Source: Octopus vulgaris
Taxonomy: Eukaryota
Length of the DNA stretch: 64,000 nucleotides
Assembly: GCA_951406725.2 (NCBI GenBank)
Contig: OX597814.1
Coordinates: 93,868,001 to 93,932,000 of the forward strand
Reading direction: 5' to 3'
The translations under genes and the position numbers were made by a program. The stretch's first letter is position 1; the number at the start of each line of letters is the position of its first letter. The notes under the pieces are model-generated. The model had not been told where the DNA came from. It did not search any database and saw only the letters and a list, made by a program, of their open reading frames with translations. Positions 1 through 62,588 of this stretch are shown piece by piece.

Positions 1-559
1 TACATTTCTACAGGGAAATATATACATTTGTGTTTATAATATACAGATGTATGTATATCAAATGTTTAAACACACAAGTGATAAACCGACATAAGCCAGA
101 GTAAATCGAAATTTAAAACGTACATGTAGTCTGTCTCTCGGTTTAAACGAAATGTACGGGAAATTTTATACTACTTTTGTGAAACAACCAAAACAATTTT
201 AATAGGTTTTTCCACGACTGGTATCACGTCATTAATCACGGGATCCAGGATTTTTAAGCTCGGACATGCACCGAATATAAGTAGGGACACGAAGTTGGCG
301 ACATCGCCGAAACTCTTTATAATAACTTCTTTCGACATTTTCGTATAATCATTCGGATTTAAGTTCATTAAAAATGCAAATATAAATAGCAGGATTCAGT
401 TATCTTGTGTTATATTAAATAAACATACACACACACATACACTGACACTACTCAGTACAGCTGCACACACAAAATTCACGCGAACACATACACACACATG
501 CAATCCCAAATCCTTCCAAACATACATTCATACATCCACCTACCCACACAACAACAGCA

Positions 560-8878: not shown

Positions 8879-11800
8879 TTACAGATTTATGCTTGAAATA
8901 GTGTCGTCTTTCATACTGACCATTTTTGCCACTTTTACCCACTTTTTATTAAAACATTCGTTCGACAAAGCCTTCCTCTCTATTCTCATCCTCCTTTTCA
9001 AGTGGTATTTGAAAAAGTTGACGAGAGACTGACCAGAGAGGAAGGTGTTTGTTTGTAGTCCTTTCAAACGCGTCCACCACACACATTCTTTCGCCATAGC
9101 CATCAGCGTAACGAAAACCGTTTTCCCTTCCCGTTTAAAGGAAGGTGGTGGAACAATATACATGATAGACTCGGCCGATAGGCGGGCCCGACCTACACGT
9201 GACAACAGTTGTTCGACGAAGGTCCACAGCTCTGAAATATCTGGACACTGCACGAGTGTGGGCAGAACGGTTTCGTCGCTCTGACCGCATCTCGGGCAGG
9301 TCGGTCCGGTGATGGTTTTCGAACCGTGTCTGTAGCTCTTCTCTCGAACAGGTAGTGCGTCTCGATAGCACTGCCAAGCCAGGGATTTCTGGAAGTTATC
9401 CATAGGCCCCGGCACGAACGTCGTCCTGAACAGGCGGGTTAGGAATTTTTCGTCGACGCCCAGGTTTGCCCCGAGTGTGTCGTCGGACCTCCCATCCACT
9501 AGTCCTCTATAGAACGCTTTAGTCGTTTGTAAGTTGCACAAGTTTGACCCCGGTCGGCAGAGCTGCTGTAGAGCTTGGCGACACTCTCGGTGCCAATCGC
9601 CCAGTTTCGGTCTCTTCTTGATCCACGTTTGCAGTTCGGTCAGTGAGACGAGCTGCGGGAAGGCGCGCCTCAGAAACGGCGCCCACACCTGTTCACCGTC
9701 GTCGAAGAAGTTCCAGAGATGTCGCAGTATCAGCGCATGCCTGCGCATCATCAACCACGTCATGCCCAGTCCTCTATTCAACGGATGTTGACAGCAAATG
9801 GACTTCCTCACCATCGGAACGCCACCCTTCCACAGGAAGCGGAAGAATATGCGTTCCAGTTTGGTGATGGTGGCGTCGGGACAAGGTACGACGGTCAGGC
9901 GGTAATCGATGACGGATGCAATGTACGCGTTCGCCACCTCCGCCCGGCCTTTTAGAGACAGCTTTCTCTCGGCCCATGTTTGGCTGAGAGCGACCACTCT
10001 ATTCGTGATCTCGTCCCAGTTCTTATCCATTTGGAGGTCCGGACTGAACCAGACCCCGAGCAATTTAACCGGTCCGTCCGTCCAGCGTCCCGCTACTGAG
10101 CCGCAGTTGGACGGCATGGGCTTGCTTCTCCAGGTGCCGAGTAGCAAACCCACTGACTTTTCCGGGTTAACCTTCGCTCCCGTCACCGTTTCGTATTTTC
10201 TTAGTGTCTCGCCTATCATCTGGATGTGTTTGTCGCTCGACACTATGACGGTGACATCGTCCGCATATGCCGACACGCTCGTCTCGCAACCCAGTTCCCG
10301 TGAGATGCCCCTCAGTGTCGCCAACTTCCGCAGTAGCGGCTCGAGAGTCAATATATACAGAAGCGCCGACAGGTGACCGTTCACCCGAATCACCGATCGG
10401 AAGCCGCTATACAAGGCAGCGATCCAACCGCGGAAAACGGGACCGAAGCCAGCCGCCCTGAGGACGGCCGCCAAGCACCGATGGTCGACCCTATCGAAGG
10501 CTTTAGACTGATCCAAATTGATCAGCGCCCCACCCATGCCAGGATCCTTAACTACCCTGTCCACAATGTAGCGCATCAGATGGAGGTTGTCATGTATGGT
10601 TCTGCCCGGCACGGCGCATGTTTGCGCCCTGTCGACAAGTTTACCAATGACAAGCGCCAACCTTTCAGCTATTACTTTGGCCAAAATTTTCAAATCTGCG
10701 TTGAGCAGAGTGATGGGCCTGAAATTATCTATAAAATTCCCCTTGTTTGGGTCTTTCTTTAGCAACGTCACTGCACCTCGGCTCACGAAACCGGGGATTC
10801 TCCCGTTTTGTTGCCAGTTACAGTAGACTGATGCCAAGAGGTCGCCAAACAAGTCTGGCATTTTACAATACAGCTCGTAGGGTAAACCATCCAATCCAGG
10901 CGACTTATCCCTCGCGCAGCCCGCCATCGCATCCCGCACGTCAGCGGCTGTGATGGCACTTTCACAACACTCCGCTTCTCTTGCCGAGAGCCGCGGCAGG
11001 TCGGTCAAGTAGGCACTGAAATCCATCCCGCGTTCCGACCCACCACTCGCACCAAACAGTCGAGCAAATTGCTGTTGAAAGGCCTCACACATCCTTTCGG
11101 GTTCGAGTAAACTGCATCCCTGTTGATCTATTAGAGACCGAATGGTGGCTCTGTTGCCACGCTGCGCCTCCGCTACCCGGGCCTCTCGCGCAGCTTCGAT
11201 CCCTTCGTTCCTTAAGGCACGCATTTTAGCTCTGACGACGCAACCTTCGTGCTTGTCGTTGAGGTGTTGGTCGAGGGCCATCCTCGCAGCCAGCACGTTG
11301 GTTGCTCTGCCAGTGGTAAGTGACTCTTCTAGTTTCTTAACCAGGTCTCCCTCTTCTCTATTTCGATCTATCGCTAATTCCTTGCTAAACCTAATTGATT
11401 CCGATTTTATTGCCATTTTCAGGGCGTACCACCTGAAGCGGTCGTTAACGACGGCTCCCGTCAGCGCCCTCTTAATTAACTCGCTAATCCGGTTCCTGTA
11501 AACCTGTCGCGCTAAGAGCGACGTGTTCAGTTTCCAGTAACCGGGACCCTGTCTATGTGTCTTATCTAAGTCGAGCGTACACGTCACAAATTTGTGATCT
11601 GTGTAACTGACTATTTTAAATTGTGGACATCCTACACTATCCCTATCCGCTGTCCTGCATAGAATTCTATCTAGATAAGATCTCGACGATCCGACGCGGT
11701 TTGTCCAAGTCCACGTTGGCACGTTCGGATGGTCGAGTCGGAACCTGTCAGACAAATGGAAACGTCTGAGTCGGTCTTTGAGGCACTTACACCCCCTTCT

Positions 11801-12340: not shown

Positions 12341-13300
12341 TCACTTACTCATTTCGAAAGTTTCATTTTTTTCTTCTTCTTTTGTAGTGTCTTTGATGGG
12401 GTGTTTGTATAGCTTTTTGGAGAGGTATCGTTGAAACCTGCCTACCGCATTTGGAAATATTGTTTTCAGTGTATGGTGTTGTGTTTGTGTTATGTGTACA
12501 ATTCTTATGTGTTTCGGCGGTGTGGTGCGCGAATGATTGTTTGTCTTAAAGTCATCTTCACAGATGTCCGTGTTGGATGCAATGTAATCCATTAATTTTT
12601 TATTGTCTGTGTCTATTGCAGTTAGTTGTGTGTGTGGTTTTGCGGGTTCATTGATTTTTTTATTGTCTTGGGGGATGCTGTCCGGAGTTAAATATCTCCC
12701 TGCTTTACTTCCTTGTTTGGTGGGCTGTTTTGATCTTTTCATTTTACCCCCTGTGGCTATTTGCCATTCCGTCGAACTTTCGTCGTCCGACGAATCAGAA
12801 GGGGGTAAAGGCAAAGCATTTGCGTTAATATGTATGCTTGTAGAAATTGTTGATGTTTTGTGCGGTGTTTGTGTTGTTGTGGTGTTAGGGGTAGAAATTT
12901 CTTCTCGTCACTGTTTTCTGTCTTTTTAATTGTCGTCCTCGGTGTTGGTGTTGGTCTATCTTTTGGTTCAGCATGCTGAATTGGTTGCGGCGTCAACAGT
13001 GATTGTGTTAGTGTTGGTGTTGGTGTTGGCAACAAGGGTTTTTTCATTTGTTTTCTGATTTGTTCTTTCTTGTTTTTTCTGTACCAGAACGCACTTGGCA
13101 ATTAAATGTTCTGGGCTGCCACAGTTGTAGCATCTAGGCTTTTTGCCTTCTGCTACAACATATAGGCTTTGCCCATTTTCTAAGTGGATCCTATCAGGTA
13201 GGTTCTCGATAGAGGACGCCTCAATCTGGATGGTCACTACTATTGTTTTTCCACCCCAATTGTCGTTTCTGTATACGGTAGTCTCTAAAATATTTATATT
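12341..13300 (-). pseudogene. Frameshifted Tx1-like ORF1 remnants
   Basis: CCHC knuckle CYNCGSPEHLIAKC in ORF 12968-13363. Adjacent ORF pieces 12757-13101 and 12341-12814 lie upstream of ORF2. Confidence 0.7.
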
Positions 13301-13359
13301 TTTCAAATGGTAACAGAAATATAACAAGTAACTGCAGAATATGTGGAGATGGACAAGAA

Positions 13360-13993
13360 ACAATAAATCATGTTATCCCTGGCTGCCCAGTCCTGGCTAA
13401 CAAGGAATATATTCACAGACACGACAGAGTTGGGACCTACATACACTGGAAGCTATGCCAACATTATGGAATAACAACAGAAAAAAGATGGTATAGGCAC
13501 ACACCAGAAAAGATCACAGAAAACGAGAAAGCAACCATACTCTGGGATATGCCAATACACACAGAGAAATTAAGGCCAATAGGCCAGATGTAGTTGTCAG
13601 AGATCATGAAGAAAAAAATTGCTTTTTAATTGATGTATCAATACCAGCAGATGACAACGTTTCTCTAAAAGAAATGGAGAAACTTTCAAAATACAAAGAC
13701 CTGGAAATAGAGGTAACTAGAATGTGTAATCTAAAAACAGAAACAATTCCTATCATAGTAGGTGTATTAGGCATGATAAAAAAATATTCAGACAAATACA
13801 TAACAAAAGCACCAAGACTTACAAACACATATAACATACAGAAAATTGCACTACTAGGCACTGCACACATCCAACGCAGAACAATTTCAATACAGTAACC
13901 ATCAGAGCATCACAACAAATCACAGCACATACCCAAGGCACACAGAGCTGCACTCGGTAGTGAAGTGAAATCACGCTATAAAAATAGAACTAG

Positions 13994-13995
<2 letters not shown>
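13360..13995 (+). mobile_element. R4/Dong-like LINE 3' fragment (restriction-like endonuclease) ending in (TAA)n
   Basis: Translation includes RHDRVG, ILWDMPIHT, NRPDVVV, LIDVSIP, EKLSKYKDLEIE. The element abuts a long TAA tract. Confidence 0.85.
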
Positions 13996-14400
<405 letters not shown>

Positions 14401-24373: not shown

Positions 24374-24689
24374 CACTCGGACGCACACATACATACACAC
24401 ATTTATATTTGGTGGTGGACGTGCAGTGTTAGGCCGATGTTTGTTGGTGTCTTTTATACATATACATATATATATACATAATCAATAATAATAACGGGTA
24501 AAATTAATTCATTAACTAGTAATTAATAATTCCACCAAGTAGTATTCGGCATGTTAAAAGGACCATTTACGGTAAACTTAAACAATATTTTATAATTCTG
24601 AGTATAATTATAATTAGGGTTCAGCAAGAATTTGCTTCACCAAACATATCTTCCTCTTCAGCTGTCTGACAGTTACCGACGAGATTTCC

Positions 24690-25458
24690 CTAATACACCA
24701 GTGTGAACCTGGAACAACCGCTTAGGTTCATTTAGATCGTGTATAGATAGGATTTTCACGAGCGAAATACAGAGTAATAATGTAGGATGTCCACTTTTTA
24801 TAACAGTTGCCTATTCAGACCATAAGTTTGTAATCTGTACGGTTGACCTAGATAAGACGCGTAGGTAGGACCCGGATACTGGAAGCTAAACATGGCGTTT
24901 CTGGCACAAGGGGAATACAGGGACCGAGTCAACAAATTAGTTATGCAGAAGTTGACAGGGGAGGGGGTCGTCAACAACAGGCGGTCGGCGGCTCTCGGTT
25001 AGAGTAATATCGATAGGATTTCGCCAAGAAATAGTGTTAGAAAAAAATACGAAGTATGGTTAGTAGCTGAACTAGACGAGGCTATTTGTAGTCACACTGC
25101 AACCACCGTGCTAGCAGCGAGAACAGTATCAGACCAGTTCTTCAATGCGAAACATGTAGGTTATATTGTCGGAGCTAAGGTGCGTGCTCTAAGAAACAAA
25201 CAGATCAAAGCTGTTCGATATGCCAGCGTGGCAGTGGCGCAGCGTGGTAACAAAACCACAATTCGGTCATTGATGGACGGAGACGGACACGAGCTAAGCG
25301 ATTCCAGATAGATGTATAAGGCCTTTCGCCTGCACTTTGCTCGATTGTTCGGAGATGGTGGCGGTACGGAGATGGTGGAGGACTTCAGTCCGTAGCTCGA
25401 CGGCTTGCCGCATCTCTTGACGGCCGACGCTGAGCGCTGTGAAAGGCAGATAACTCTG
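24690..25458 (+). mobile_element. Decayed Tx1-like ORF2 fragment
   Basis: SDHKFVICTVDLDK, PGYWKLN and VGAKVRALRN are homologous to the 8879-12274 element. Confidence 0.75.
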
Positions 25459-25459
25459 C

Positions 25460-25900
25460 CTGTGGGAAATTATGGAGTAAATCTTAGGGTTTATAAATCT
25501 AACATTTTCCTATTTTTCCTTAATATCGGTTCCCATATGCTACTCATATCTGCATTCGCTCTGCAGGTATGTAGGTTATACAAAGGCGAAACATGCCGCC
25601 CCTCAAAATAAGGGTAGACGAACATCGCAAAGCTGTGACACGAGGAGATATTGATAAATCGGGTATAGCTGATCATGTATGGAAAAATGGGGACCACTTC
25701 CCCTTGTGGGATGACGTTAAAATAATAGATAGAGAACACCACCGGAAAATACGAAAACTAAAAGCAGCACATATGTTAGGACAAAAACAACCTCCTAAGC
25801 AGACCGAGTGCAGATATGAGTAGCATATGGGAACCGGTATTCAGGAAGGATAGAAAAATATTAGATTGATAAGCCCAAAAATTCACTCTATAATTTCCCG
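25460..25900 (+). mobile_element. Penelope-like GIY-YIG 3' fragment with an inverted 5' duplication
   Basis: YKGETCRP/LKIRVDEHRKAVTRGDIDKSGIADHVW. Positions 25460-25558 are the reverse complement of 25805-25900. Confidence 0.8.
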
Positions 25901-25970
25901 CGAGCATATGGCGTAGTGGTTAAGAGCACGGGCTACTAATCCCAAGAGTCCGAGTTCGATTCCAGGCAGT
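25900..25970 (+). promoter_or_regulatory. tRNA-derived internal Pol III promoter (A and B boxes)
   Basis: A box TGGCGTAGTGG (25909-25919) and B box GAGTTCGATTCC (25952-25963), with tRNA-like spacing. Confidence 0.75.
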
Positions 25971-26060
25971 GACCTGAATAATAATAATAATCATAATAAC
26001 AATAGTAATAACATCGAAAAATACCTCAGGAATGAAAAGCCAAGTTTGAAATTTCACCAA

Positions 26061-26106
26061 GACACCTGATGAAGGCTGGAGGGTATATCAGCCGAAACAT
26101 TGTGTT
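26061..26106 (+). ncRNA. Minimal hammerhead ribozyme
   Basis: GACAC CUGAUGA a GGCUG gaggguauau CAGCC GAAAC AUU GUGUU. Helix I is GACAC/GUGUU. Helix III is vestigial (ACAU, probably ancestral ACGU). Confidence 0.7.
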
Positions 26107-26494
26107 AACAACAAACAAGATGAGGACAAATATCCGTCAAATGTAAATAACAACTTTTTTATCTGTTTAAATTAGTTGGTATAAAAAGATTATTCTCTTT
26201 TACTCTTTTACTCTTATACTTGTTTCAGTCATTTGACTGCGGCCATGCTGGAGCACCGCCTTTATTGTTTAAATTAACTAATAAAAATCTTCTATATTTA
26301 TTATTTTCTACATAGCCTTGGTTTTGTTATCTCATTACGAAAAAAAAGTTTATATACACACGCCGACATATGACCAACGTTGAACTCCTTATTCGCATAA
26401 TCACCGTACCTGGAACTTAACTATGGTCTATCTATAACACTTATTCAGCATTACCTGACACCTTTGGGTCACAATGACACCATTACCTGTTATA

Positions 26495-42242: not shown

Positions 42243-42347
42243 AATTCAGGGTGAGTACTTGATAATTGTAAGAACCTGTATATACCGTTTGGTGGTGTAG
42301 GTGGTGGAGTAAATTAATCAAAATAAAAACATGATGCCAAGGATTCA

Positions 42348-42423
42348 GCGGTACATATGTTTCGGGCCTTCATTAGACGGGTTTATAACAATGCATAATG
42401 TGTCTATGGCCTTCTTCAACCGC
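42348..42423 (-). ncRNA. Hammerhead motif, left-arm copy with an uncompensated C3U change
   Basis: GCGG UUGAAGA aGGCC...GGCCc GAAA C AUAU G UA CCGC. Confidence 0.6.
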
Positions 42424-45400
42424 GCACAACTACTACCTCAAGGACATGTATTACATCAAAAATTCTACGTTGGGGATGCAAATCCTCTCATTCGCGTACG
42501 ACATAATGCGGCAACAGCATAAAAATGAAGCGTCCATCTCGTCCTTCTCTCAATGTAGAATGAGGAAGTTTGGATGTTGAGGTAATATAAATAAATGAAT
42601 AAATAAATATATACATATATAAATACAGACAGACGTGAAGGAACCTGGTAATAAGAGCAAATAGGGATAAAGATGGAGGGCGAGAATTCAGAACGAAGGA
42701 TAAAAAAATATATAAAAAGTGTAAGTATAGAAAAATATAAAAATGTAGAGTATAAAGATATAAAGAGATATAAAAAAATATAAACAAATATAAATGAATA
42801 TAAAGGTATAAAGTTATAAAAAAATTAAAAATTTAAAAAATAAAAATATTATCAGAAGTATAAAGGGTATAAGAGTGTAGGAATGTAAAAGAATATAAGG
42901 ATAAGGGATATATAGTAGTTACGGTCCAAACATGGTGGTCAGGAAAATGACGAATTCTGGTTGTAGAAGCCTTGGGTGTCATAAATCAACCGGGGCGTCT
43001 GGGGACCTAGTGTATTGTAAATTAGAGTTGTTGAGCCGCTTATCTAGTTCTTCGTAACGTATTAAGTGGTCATCATGTACATACGTACACGCATGGATAC
43101 ATACACCCATATACACGCGCACATATACGCACGCATACGCAACTACACGCATACAAGCATACATAGTACTCTCGTGTAAACATATACAGATATATATGGA
43201 AAAAGGCGCATGTAGTTGGGTACACGAACCGACGCGCACACGTACGTACATACATACACTCACATGCGTTCATATAGGCACACTCGCACTTACACGCATG
43301 TACAAAACGAAGTGAATCTCTATGCGTGTGGGCAGGAATATGTATACACCTGCACTCGCGTCCACCCCCACGCACATGGGGGAGTAGATCCCTATGCCTA
43401 TACACAAAGGCATGCATATGCACAGACACAGGTATAACAAAAGGATCCGTTCTTGCACACGGGTAAGATACGGAGTCATAGTGGGTACATTAGGTAGACA
43501 TGAACGTAAGAAACTTGCGGGCAAAAGATTTTAACAGAATATGCATATATATACACGGACAATATACATATACATATATATATATATACACACACACACA
43601 TACGCATATATATATACACACATATATGTATATATATATATGTATATATATACATATACACATATATACACATATACATACACACACATACCCACACCCA
43701 TACCCGCACACGCAAATATATATATGTGTGCATACATACACATCCACGTGTACATACATACACGCATATATACATACACACGGACCCACGCACACGTATC
43801 CACACGCACACACACACACATCTGTGTGTCTATACGTGCGTGTGCATATACACTTACATACACATACACAGACACACACACATATAGGTATAGATATAAG
43901 ATATTAAAAGATGTATAAAAAATGTATATAAGAAATCTACAAAAGCATGTAAAAAAACGGACCCACGCACACGTATCTACACGCACACACACATACATCT
44001 GTGTGTCTATACGTGCGTGTACACATACACTTACATACACATACACAGACACACACACATATAGGTATAGATATAAGATATTAAAAGATGTATAAAAAAT
44101 GTATATAAGAAATCTACAAAAGCATGTAAAAAAAAAATTATTAAAAAAGTATAACGGGGGGGGGGGGTACACATATAAATACAGATATTTACTCATACAT
44201 ACACATACACATATATACATATACATACATACACAGACACACGTATAATCATAAAGCGGATACATAGATAAGTAAATAAGGAAAAAAGCTAAAAATAGAC
44301 ATATATAGAGATATAAATTGATAAAATAGGGGTAAACATAGGAGTAAGAATAAGGGTAAGAATAAAAATTAGAAATAAAAATAAGAAATAAAATATAAAA
44401 ATTAAAGTAAAGAATAAAAATAAAAATAAGAATAAAGATAAAATAAAATAAAGTGTTAAAGGTGACCACGTAGGGGCGGGCGGGGTATGTGTGTATATGT
44501 GTATATATATACATATATATACATATATATATATACATATATGTGTGTATATATATATGCGTATGTGTGTGTGTGTATATATATATATATATGTATATTG
44601 TCCGTGTATATATATGCATATTCTGTTAAAATCTTTTGCCCGCAAGTTTCTTACGTTCATGTCTACCTAATGTACCCACTATGACTCCGTATCTTACCCG
44701 TGTGCAAGAACGGATCCTTTTGTTATACCTGTGTCTGTGCATATGCATGCCTTTGTGTATAGGCATAGGGATCTACTCCCCCATGTGCGTGGGGGTGGAC
44801 GCGAGTGCAGGTGTATACATATTCCTGCCCACACGCATAGAGATTCACTTCGTTTTGTACATGCGTGTAAGTGCGAGTGTGCCTATATGAACGCATGTGA
44901 GTGTATGTATGTACGTACGTGTGCGCGTCGGTTCGTGTACCCAACTACATGCGCCTTTTTCCATATATATCTGTATATGTTTACACGAGAGTACTATGTA
45001 TGCTTGTATGCGTGTAGTTGCGTATGCGTGCGTATATATGCGCGTGTATATGGGTGTATGTATCCATGCGTGTACGTATGTACATGATGACCACTTAATA
45101 CGTTACGAAGAACTAGATAAGCGGCTCAACAACTCTAATTTACCATACACTAGGTCCCCAGACGCCCCGGTTGATTTATGACACCCAAGGCTTCTACAAC
45201 CAGAATTCGTCATTTTCCTGACCACCATGTTTGGTCCGTAACTACTATATATCCCTTATCCTTATATTCTTTTACATTCCTACACTCTTATACCCTTTAT
45301 ACTTCTGATAATTTTTTATTTTTTAAATTTTTTAAATTTTAAAATTTTAAAATTTTTTTATAACTTTATACCTTTATATTCATTTATATCTGTTTATATT

Positions 45401-45755
45401 TTTTTTATATCTCTTTATATCTTTATACTCTACATTTTTATATTTTTCTATACTTACACTTTTTATATATTTTTTTATCCTTCGTCCTGAATTCTCCCCC
45501 CTCCATCTTTATCCCTATTTGCTCTTATTACCAGGTTCCTTCACGTCTGTCTGTATTTATATATGTATATATTTATTTATTCATTTATTTTAATTACCTC
45601 AACATCCAAACTTCCTCATTCTACATTGAGAGAAGGACGAGATGGACGCTTCATTTTTATGCTGTTGCCGCATTATGTCGTACGCGAATGAGAGGATTTG
45701 CATCCCAAACGTAGAATTTTTGATGTAATACATGTCCTTGAGGTAGTAGTTGTGC

Positions 45756-45833
45756 GCGGCTGAAGAAGGCCATAGAGACACATTATGCATTGTTATAAAT
45801 CCGTCTAATAAAGGCCCGAAACATATGTACCGC
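45756..45833 (+). ncRNA. Minimal hammerhead ribozyme, right-arm copy
   Basis: GCGG CUGAAGA aGGCC...GGCCc GAAA C AUAU G UA CCGC. Helix III is the palindrome ACAUAUGU. Confidence 0.8.
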
Positions 45834-45866
45834 TGAATCCTTGGCATCATGTTTTTACTTTAATCA

Positions 45867-45954
<88 letters not shown>

Positions 45955-60237: not shown

Positions 60238-62588
60238 AAGGGTGAAAAGGAACACACGAGTTGATATATATGAAAAAACAAGTAAAAAATAGAAAATGCT
60301 AAAATAATTTTATAGTGAACATTTCAGTACCGGTTTCGGTCATTTTGAGACCTTTTCAACTGTAACGATTAAATAATTAAATTTAGAAAAATTAGAAGAA
60401 AAGTTTTTTTAAAACAATATTTCTATAGTAGTGTTCAGATTTAAGTGGCATTCTGCCTTTCTCTGACTCCCTTGTTTGCACTTGTGTGTTCGAGGTAGTT
60501 GTGAGTTCTTGGTAGGGTAGTAGAGGGAAGGCTGGTGAGGAAAGGGGGGTGGGAGAATCTGGGAGTGCCCTGATGGTCGTATTTTGAATGGTCAGTGGCG
60601 GCTGGCAGTCTCAGTTCAATTCAGGAGAATATTTATATCGACAGGCTTGTTTATAGAATTAGCGTAGGTGTTATACTAAAAAACATTAGTGACAAACTTA
60701 AGGGGTAGGGGGTGGAGAAGAAGAAGAAGAAGAAGAAGAAGAAGGAGAAGGAGAAGGAGAAGATGATGGTGATGGTGGTGATGATTATGACGACGATGAT
60801 GATGATAACGATGATGATGAAGAAGAAGAAGAAGAAGAAGAAGGTGGAGAAGGAGAAGATGGTGGTGATGATGGTGGCGATGATGATGACGCCGATGCTG
60901 ATGATAACGATGATGATGAAGAAGAAGAAGAAGAAAAAAACAGAGAAGGGAGAATATGAATGGGTGTAAATATAGCTATGAAGGGGCTGATTAGTAATGG
61001 ATTCTATGGAGTGTAGTATTTGTGTGTGTATATATATTTTTTTCTTTTATTCTAAAGTTGAGGTATATTAATTGTTTGTCGTAGACCCGTTAAGAAGTGG
61101 CTTGTATTTTGTAATAAAGAGATTTTCTTTACTTATTCTTTGTCTCGAGGTTGTATCGTCCCTAAATTGGTAGAGGGGGAAAATTCTGAAGTTTGGTGTT
61201 TTTTTGTTGGCGCAAGTATCTATGTGTTGGCTAAAAGCTATTTTTCTGTTTTGGGGAATTTTTATCTGGGATCTGTGCAGGGCCATTCGTTTACGCAAAC
61301 CATTTTTTGTTTGGCCTATGTACTGCTCTTGACACCCGGAGCAGGTTAGTGAGTATATTAGGTTCTCCGAAGCACATGTGAAGTTGCTTTTCACTGTAAA
61401 CCGTTGTCCCTGTTTGAAGGAGAACTCAGAACCCTCGATTAGATAGTCGCATATCCCGCAATTGGGTCTTCCACATTTTTTTACTGTCGGCTTCTGTGTT
61501 GAAGAGTGAATTCGGGCTTGTGTAAGGAGACTTTTCATGGATCTAGGCTGTCTTTTGCTTTTTATGATCGTGTGTGTTTGGAGGATTGTGTTCATTCTGT
61601 GGTCTTTTTTAGGAGGGGTATGTTGTGGAGGATGGTGTCGAAGGCTTCGTTATTGAGAGGGTTGTGTGTGGAGATGTATGGTAAGGCTTTTGGTTGTAAG
61701 TTTTTCTTTGATTTGGGATGTCTCAGTTCCTTGATGTTAAGTTGAAGGGCACGTTGAATGCACTTGTCAATAAGTGAAGGTGGATAGTTCCTGGTGATTA
61801 GGGTATCTTTTAGTTCTTGTAGTCGTGTGTCTCTGGTGTTTGCGTTAGAGACTATAGTGCATATCCTTTTTGCTAGATTGAAGGGGATATTCATCCTGGT
61901 GTGTCTGGGGTGGCATGAATTGAATGGAAGATATTGCTTAGAGTCTGTAGGCTTATAGTATATGTCTGTTTCTATTATATTATTAGCTTTCTTAATGAGG
62001 ATATCGAGGAAGGGGAGTTGTTGTTGGCTATATTCCATCGTGAATTGGATGTTTACGTCCAGTCCGTTTAAAATTTTCTGGAATTCTATGAGTTTTTCTA
62101 TATTTTTATGCCAAAGGATGAAACAGTCATCTAGATATCTCTTCCAGTTGTTTTCTATGTAGATGGAGAAAGGGCTGCCATATCTTTCTAGAACCTTACG
62201 ATACAGACTGATCTCTAGGTATCCTATGACTAGGTTGGCAAAGGAGGGGGCCATTCGTGTACCCATCGCAGTCCCCGATTTTTGTCGGTAGAAGTTGTCA
62301 TTGAAGGCGAAGAAGTTATTTTCCAGGATGAATTTAACCCCTTCTATCACAAATTCTTTTTTGATGCGGTGTGGTAGTTCGTTGGCGTGATTCTCTAGCC
62401 AGAATTGGATTACCTCTAGTCCTAGGTTGTGGGGGATATTGGAGTAGAGGTTGACTACATCGAAGGATACCAGTATGGTGTTTTTGTTTATAGTATTCGG
62501 TAGGTGATTGAGCATATCTAAGTCGTCCCTTATATAGCTTTTGACATGTTTGAGGAGTGGTTTTAACAGGGTGTCTAAAAAGTTTTTT
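60236..62588 (-). mobile_element. 5'-truncated Neptune-like PLE (RT + GIY-YIG + HHR-bearing 3'UTR) between (TA)n tracts
   Basis: ORF 61592-62515: LVSFDVVNLYSNI, GTAMGTRMAPSFANL, WKRYLDDCF, LPFLD, IYYKPTD. ORF 61068-61595: CGRPNCGIC, LIYSLTCSGC..YIGQT. Confidence 0.9.
60325..60362 (-). ncRNA. Minimal hammerhead ribozyme, U3-A8 variant, in a PLE 3'UTR
   Basis: Minus strand: CAG UUGAAAA GGUC ucaaaau GACC GAAA CCGG UA CUG. Confidence 0.72.

Follow-up and report, generated by a model that had tools for sequence, protein, structure and literature searches.

Penelope-like elements (PLEs) such as Penelope and Poseidon_Ac have a single ORF with RT and GIY-YIG domains, a pLTR and an ORF start that overlaps a hammerhead (PMC11167929), and the family characterized here has all these features in common with them. 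Two internal RT starts and a tail have been described for Poseidon_Ac in the same paper. The PLE promoters studied so far are Pol II-like, and the internal promoters of Drosophila virilis Penelope and of Chlamys-3 are intron-associated (PMC2377424, PMC8557442). For TRIMp3 elements it was proposed that the promoter came from insertion of a SINE into the repeat (PMC10886601). In the window, i.e. the whole stretch of 64,000 nt of Octopus vulgaris DNA (contig OX597814.1) analysed here, a PLE remnant runs into tRNA-type promoter boxes and a hammerhead motif.

Parts of the locus and of its family

The 3' end of the PLE ORF, namely a frameshifted C-terminal part of GIY-YIG, occupies window positions 25562-25872 on the plus strand, with the family stop codon at 25870-25872. 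A 24-nt spacer (25873-25896) leads from the stop codon to the tRNA-derived head (25897-25976), in which tRNA position 1 falls at 25902, the A box at 25909-25919 and the B box at 25952-25963. On the same strand there follow a (TAA)n tract (25977-26009), which varies in length among copies and is often struck by other elements; a 'body' (26010-26060) made of a 5' leader and the first ORF codons, with the ATG at 26032-26034; a minimal type I hammerhead motif within the N-terminal ORF codons (26061-26106; descriptor from PMC4209133); and an AC-rich tail (26107-26150) that stops at the first of the two 3'-end clusters of the family. Helix I of the hammerhead consists of 26061-26065 and 26102-26106 and helix II of 26074-26078 and 26089-26093, the core lies at 26066-26072 and its GAAA at 26094-26097, and the cut is predicted after 26101. 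The sequence-only reading of this DNA had listed the GIY-YIG remnant, both boxes, the TAA tract, the body and the hammerhead, and all of them are present as described there. Absent from that reading was an inverted piece of 108 bp in front of the insertion (25457-25564, minus strand), which belongs to the same insertion, comprises the ORF end, the spacer and the first 10 nt of the head, and is 90% identical to the family monomer.

From 25562 to 26150 the window copy is 91% identical to the family at DNA level; at protein level the remnant has only 43% identity to residues 736-834 of the family protein, due to the frameshifts. The A+B-box pattern matched once in the window versus 0.1 times per shuffled window, and the minimal-hammerhead descriptor matched once (core at 26066, cut after 26101) versus 0.0 times, with 40 dinucleotide shuffles in each case. 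We characterized the window copy as a worn, 5'-truncated retrotransposon of the Penelope/Poseidon type. Its host is a decayed element (24663-25445) that is 65% like window positions 10959-11754 and is LINE-like by translation. Elsewhere in the window, 42310-43674 and 44486-45871 form an inverted pair of 1.4 kb with 96% identity.

A second copy of body and hammerhead had been claimed at 14270-14400. The copy is indeed there (14254-14398, plus strand, 84%), starting in a TAA tract, but it has no hammerhead, since a 16-nt deletion has taken away the GAAA core together with the 3' strand of helix II. No head was found upstream of it. The stretch at 13300-14270 contains the 3' end of a REL-type LINE, which we take to be Dong/R4-like, with an extended TAA tract behind it. 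Other headless copies (L161, L224, L233) likewise have this LINE end in front of their TAA tract, which marks the tract as an insertion hot spot.

A majority consensus with a depth of at least 25 gave a monomer of 2,650 nt (2.65 kb) with a single open frame of 835 codons, in the order head, (TAA)n, ATG, hammerhead, tail, RT, GIY-YIG, stop, 24 nt and next head. Between the stop of the 835-aa ORF and the head there are 24 nt, and the ORF starts anew 69 nt ahead of the predicted ribozyme cut; in coordinates that start with the head, the ATG falls at 119, the hammerhead core at 153 and the cut after 188, so that the 'body' and the ribozyme are the first codons of the ORF. The sequence-only reading was to be dropped if tRNA head and hammerhead proved unlinked in other copies. 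In 29 of the 30 best GIY-YIG matches, the window copy included, the locus runs into the head and/or the body at one common junction; thus, the head is not a chance insertion. Locus L126, extended by upstream walking, has the structure pLTR-ORF-pLTR, and L104 also gave evidence of a partial tandem or pLTR. With a relative of 55% identity as query, all 30 matched loci belonged to the family of the window copy, and in this strict first look none of the 30 represented a headless sister family. The earlier suggestion of a PLE with a promoter-type head inside its pLTR is therefore well founded as far as anatomy goes, by the 29 of 30 loci, the consensus and the search with the relative; for Pol III promoter function the support is indirect, coming from the pile-up of 5' ends and the step in motif counts described below.

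Judging by domain order and by the layout of ORF and ribozyme, the family is a Penelope-like element of the Penelope/Poseidon type. It has a single ORF with RT plus GIY-YIG at its C terminus, a hammerhead in the pLTR, pLTRs in partial tandem, inverted 5' copies and a 30-40-nt tail. Pfam RVT_1 scored 27.7 bits on the consensus ORF, just below the cut-off of 29.6; the homologues listed (at least 120) carry RT and/or PF26215/PF28514 domains, in some cases also PF01541. The relatives P0003 and P0163, of ~55% identity, share the N-terminal peptide encoded by the ribozyme. The unit was found in contigs of five organisms. At the spacer-head junction we saw 37 A-box-carrying loose ends in one organism, and gapped records span the junction in two others; the cross-species reference, L043, is without part of the A box, which weakened this comparison. 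Eight distant relatives from metagenomes were 34-42% identical, and in the two of them that reach the ORF end the short remaining sequence contained no head.

The family is old, since all of the 15 best ORF-linked loci are 91-93% identical to the consensus; its mean non-CpG divergence is ~4%. At the first 3'-end cluster (monomer 229-250) a 9-nt unit occurs once to four times in tandem without breaking the frame, both in linked and in solo copies (e.g. L265, L280), possibly as a result of slippage at an RT start.

The consensus following the ribozyme core had been predicted as GAAACGUU, which is correct for the family; the window copy has a G-to-A change within it. The core is kept in 62 of 80 gap-free copies, 31 of which also keep the helix III palindrome, broken in the window copy. 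Hammerhead variation within this one family is mostly CpG decay, with the sole recurrent core variant at the free position N7, and the minimum-energy folds of monomer and dimer differ from the active fold.

Copy numbers and ends of the short units

Counting copies with and without upstream PLE sequence, as had been proposed, we obtained exact matches to the tail motif (10,112), the B-box region (4,243), the A-box head (3,743) and a spacer motif 33 nt upstream (806), with 0 for controls. Heads thus outnumber the upstream motif by 3,743 to 806, short head-to-tail units being more numerous than ORF-linked ones, and the spacer pattern, with the fewest matches, was the shortest of the motifs. Candidates from a DNA search, which skips very common words, gave no such step (3,218 for the unit versus 2,906 for GIY-YIG). 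The short head-to-tail units are likely to number tens of thousands.

Ends were determined in samples drawn from one contig, within its first 22 Mb. For the tail-selected sample we took, by position and not by score, the surroundings of the first tail matches listed (90 loci), and dropped repeats and matches <600 nt from a locus edge, which left 97 copies; the counts are not all independent, owing to inverted pairs and to at least one triplicated insertion (L211-L213). In positions counted from the head, 23 of the 97 copies have 5' ends at 99-198, 29 in the TAA tract, eight at 24-77, 29 at -13 to +23, one at -20 and seven beyond -100. Hence 37 copies reach the head, and 29 of these 37 stop at -13 to +23. 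The rate of 5' ends there is 0.021 per nt, versus 0.0033 just downstream and at most 0.0015 upstream. The pile-up in the TAA tract (29/74) is equal in size to that at the head, and two of the copies ending in the tract have a head or head remnant past it.

A sample of 67 heads from position-ordered loci gave a similar picture: 43 end at -3 to +9 (at least one of these, L252, being by eye a linked copy that has suffered a deletion), 15 fold back as palindromes around the first 5 nt of the head, two end at -20 and seven are ORF-linked, while no 5' end was observed between -4 and -19. This distribution is a wall, as would be expected of a template end. Among 30 position-ordered heads, 25 were without the upstream spacer and five had it (three of the five being one triplicated insertion); 19 of the 25 spacer-less heads have an inverted neighbour. 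The body lies downstream of 27 of the 30 heads, by eye directly so in 22. A different body behind the same head was also considered and rejected, as the four heads that lack a body within 600 nt have no downstream sequence in common. Of the 97 tail-selected copies, 49 have inverted neighbours.

The 3' ends of the 97 copies fall into two clusters, at 237-247 (n = 50) and 269-281 (n = 39), so that 89 of the 97 end 49-93 nt beyond the predicted cut. As a tail-selected sample cannot reveal 3' ends at the cut, head-selected copies were also inspected by eye; none of the 22 with a contiguous body ended at the cut. We thus ruled out the hammerhead cut as the 3' end of the units.

Transcription and mobilization

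The tRNA origin of the head is judged from the boxes and from alignment to the tRNA genes of the genome: the best score was 62 (tRNA-Arg), versus a maximum of 48 in 300 shuffles, tRNA-Arg being the best within a comparison set of 7 amino-acid types among 40 genes in 30 loci. ARAGORN and Rfam, run on the window unit, reported no tRNA and no hammerhead, even at E up to 10. In the family consensus both A and B boxes are intact at tRNA spacing. A run of four T is the usual Pol III terminator. The sense strand of the 2,650-nt monomer has no TTTT, with 2.9 expected from a synonymous-codon shuffle (P 0.03) and 2.5 from a dinucleotide shuffle (P 0.05). The young headless PLE of the same genome has 16 in 3,982 nt, its ORF 6 versus 5.3 expected, and in 10.3 kb from seven distant relatives there are 46, versus about 41 expected. 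The missing T runs are suggestive, being consistent with Pol III transcription; runs of four G are missing too (2.7 expected, P 0.05), so the gap may be one of general composition. RNA-seq reads from three runs of one organism (9,241, 6,853 and 6,369) fall about equally on both strands without a pile-up and have no bearing on Pol III.

We consider it fairly probable that the pLTR head serves as an internal Pol III promoter and that the PLE RT copies the short RNAs into SINE-like units. The pLTR of an ancestral PLE would have acquired a tRNA-plus-(TAA)n retrocopy in a single event. Transcription would begin about 10-13 nt before the A box, in the window copy near 25896-25900; the wall at about -1 is 13 nt in front of the A box, and on tRNA genes Pol III starts at this place. 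We infer that the two 3'-end clusters are RT start sites, and RT would start at one of these tail sites, as has been described for Poseidon_Ac in vitro. From the last tail it would produce ORF-bearing, randomly truncated copies like that of the window; from the first tail, or on a short RNA that starts at any of the heads, it would reach the RNA 5' end and leave a solo unit. At the template end the cDNA would fold back on a terminal repeat of GCCC/GGGC type and prime the inverted neighbour, fold-back on these terminal inverted four bases accounting for the palindromic copies. The hammerhead would not set insertion ends, and Pol II read-through mRNA may supply the ORF protein. A bolder version, in which Pol III makes the whole 2.65-kb template from the captured tRNA promoter and the end repeat doubles as a SINE moved by Penelope RT, we hold to be doubtful; it would explain why the sense strand has no TTTT.

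One could argue that the head is a passenger and not a promoter, Pol II reading the element from upstream and the 5' pile-up arising by stalling or snap-back of RT at a junction hairpin. Such stalling could give the same pile-up, as the junction is the strongest local hairpin: in the consensus, the spacer forms it with the first 15 nt of the head, and at -11.6 kcal/mol the junction holds the most stable 32-nt window in 1,200 nt (-900 to +300); in the window copy the hairpin has decayed. The equal pile-up in the TAA tract tells us that local sequence alone makes 5'-end spikes, and known PLE promoters are, as mentioned, Pol II-like. However, the ends sit in the 3' arm and loop of the hairpin and go no further than about -1. 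In each of the 15 sampled fold-backs the inverted head is at least as good a match as the spacer, while snap-back should be easier after more of the 5' arm has been copied. Also, two further hairpins, of -9.4 kcal/mol at +20 and of -8.4 kcal/mol at +161, fall where the hazard of 5' ends is low, and in the consensus both boxes are preserved at tRNA spacing. We regard this explanation as unlikely. Still less probable is that the short units form a true SINE family with masters of its own, transcribed by Pol III, moved in trans by the PLE protein and evolving separately. The copies do carry an A/B-box head at the 5' end, as tRNA-derived SINEs do, 25 of the 30 position-ordered heads are without an upstream ORF, and every solo unit contains both RT start sites along with the promoter boxes; in a few solos the distance from the consensus is 0.6-1.2%, less than in any linked copy (1.4% or more). 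Nevertheless, no diagnostic site was found between 84 solo and 23 ORF-linked copies, and mean non-CpG ages are the same (4.1% versus 4.4%). Position 242 appeared diagnostic (p 0.004) and lost this status on retest (6/19 versus 14/43, p 1.0), and the number of tail repeats was rejected as a solo diagnostic since solo and linked copies are alike. As solo and linked copies agree in sequence and mean age (107 copies), with no lineage detectable apart from the autonomous partner, we did not file the short unit as a SINE family of its own. Nor is there a LINE-type 3' end with target-site duplications: the 3' end is the PLE tail, and no duplication was seen by eye in nine non-inverted solos. Poseidon_Ac, moreover, is described as needing RNA past the tail for protein binding, and solo units are without such RNA (PMC11167929).

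Very improbable, finally, is a retrozyme-like unit in which hammerhead cleavage sets the RNA ends, or a chance nested insertion. The 5' ends at the predicted cut (positions 188-191) are in weak excess, 7 versus 2.4 expected (Poisson p 0.011, post hoc, with 2 internal deletions dropped), and a few tandem body-and-tail runs exist. Yet the excess, on which we place no weight, was picked after looking and coincides with a palindrome, the 3' ends lie well past the cut, copies are mostly single or inverted and not the tandem units bounded by the hammerhead cut that define non-LTR retrozymes, and a chance insertion would not recur at the same junction in 29 of 30 loci. The runs, at L166 and L190/L191, are headless tandems of body, hammerhead and tail with a period of ~220-250 nt; we characterized them as retrozyme-like arrays derived from the pLTR of the family. 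As to the other suggestion of the sequence-only reading, a SINE/retrozyme-like family mobilised by the PLE enzyme with a self-cleaved 3' end, mobilisation agrees with the presence of inverted neighbours and with the pair of 3'-end clusters; the self-cleaved end is refuted, and the separate family is not supported.

Relation to other elements

The window contains a fragment of a second, very young PLE family without a tRNA head (61600-62580, minus strand; L321-L350). The best 40 of its 2,889 candidates are ~100% identical, the open frame has 784 aa, and tandem arrays with a ~4.4-kb period are found on C9. This family is likely to be still active; its clade is presumably Neptune-like. In its pLTR (L344 ~175-230, minus strand) we noticed by eye a candidate hammerhead in which the core has the U3-A8 variant and helix III is palindromic; the U3-A8 variant was reported for Schistosoma (PMC4209133).

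With >10,000 copies, the tRNA-headed family offers a genomic read-out of the PLE mechanism, that is, of internal RT starts and of fold-back priming at the template 5' end. In genome annotation its short units would be filed as tRNA SINEs though they are the ends of a PLE. If the whole element is indeed made by Pol III, a SINE was born inside its autonomous partner and is moved by Penelope RT, not by a LINE. A PLE with a tRNA-derived pLTR promoter was not found in the literature searched, including passages of PMC8557442, PMC6765202, PMC7229834, PMC3531059, PMC8969392 and PMC13282606. The short unit may already have a name in Repbase, Dfam, SINEBase, Ohshima and Okada 1994, Ferbeyre 1998 or the supplements of other papers. 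The octopus retroposons of Ohshima and Okada 1994 are tRNA-derived short repeats, probably of the same animal group, and one of the three families could be the solo unit.

Beyond ORF and pLTR organization, Poseidon_Ac resembles our family in having two 3'-end sites about 30-40 nt apart and 5' truncation with inverted neighbours (PMC11167929). The pLTR of the family, however, starts with a tRNA-derived A/B-box head and (TAA)n, the head occupying the site at which PLEs have their promoter, whereas in Penelope the internal promoter is TATA-less and overlaps an intron (PMC2377424). The minimal hammerheads of PLE pLTRs have in common with ours a 5-bp helix I, an extra nucleotide before helix II, G10.1-C11.1, a palindromic 15.2-16.2 and thousands of single copies; they differ in helix II, of 7-8 bp versus 5 bp in the family, and in the part of the paper at hand no Pol III head is described for them (PMC4209133). 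Animal non-LTR retrozymes are likewise short hammerhead repeats from PLE pLTRs, but they form tandem arrays cut at each unit, while the units of our family are mostly single or in inverted pairs and have a tRNA head (PMC7229834; bioRxiv 10.64898/2026.07.22.740005).

In design, Sm-alpha and TRIMp3 come nearest to our family. In the schistosome Sm-alpha and Sj-alpha repeats, as in our family, a Pol III-type promoter is followed by a hammerhead in a short repeat (review PMC6765202). These repeats are arranged in tandem, do not code for protein and are processed by the ribozyme, whereas the unit of our family belongs to an autonomous element, supplying its end repeat and the start of its coding sequence, and has ends that are not set by the cut. 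If our reading is correct, it gives a concrete route from a pLTR to a SINE-like, ribozyme-bearing repeat such as Sm-alpha. The TRIMp3 elements (Cassandra, Helenus, Ajax) share with the family a Pol III promoter derived from a small RNA in the terminal repeat; in contrast to a protein-coding PLE, they are LTR elements that are non-autonomous and possess PBS, PPT and TSDs (PMC10886601). A coding PLE with a tRNA head would thus extend the TRIMp3-type design, Pol III promoter in the terminal repeat, to an autonomous element.
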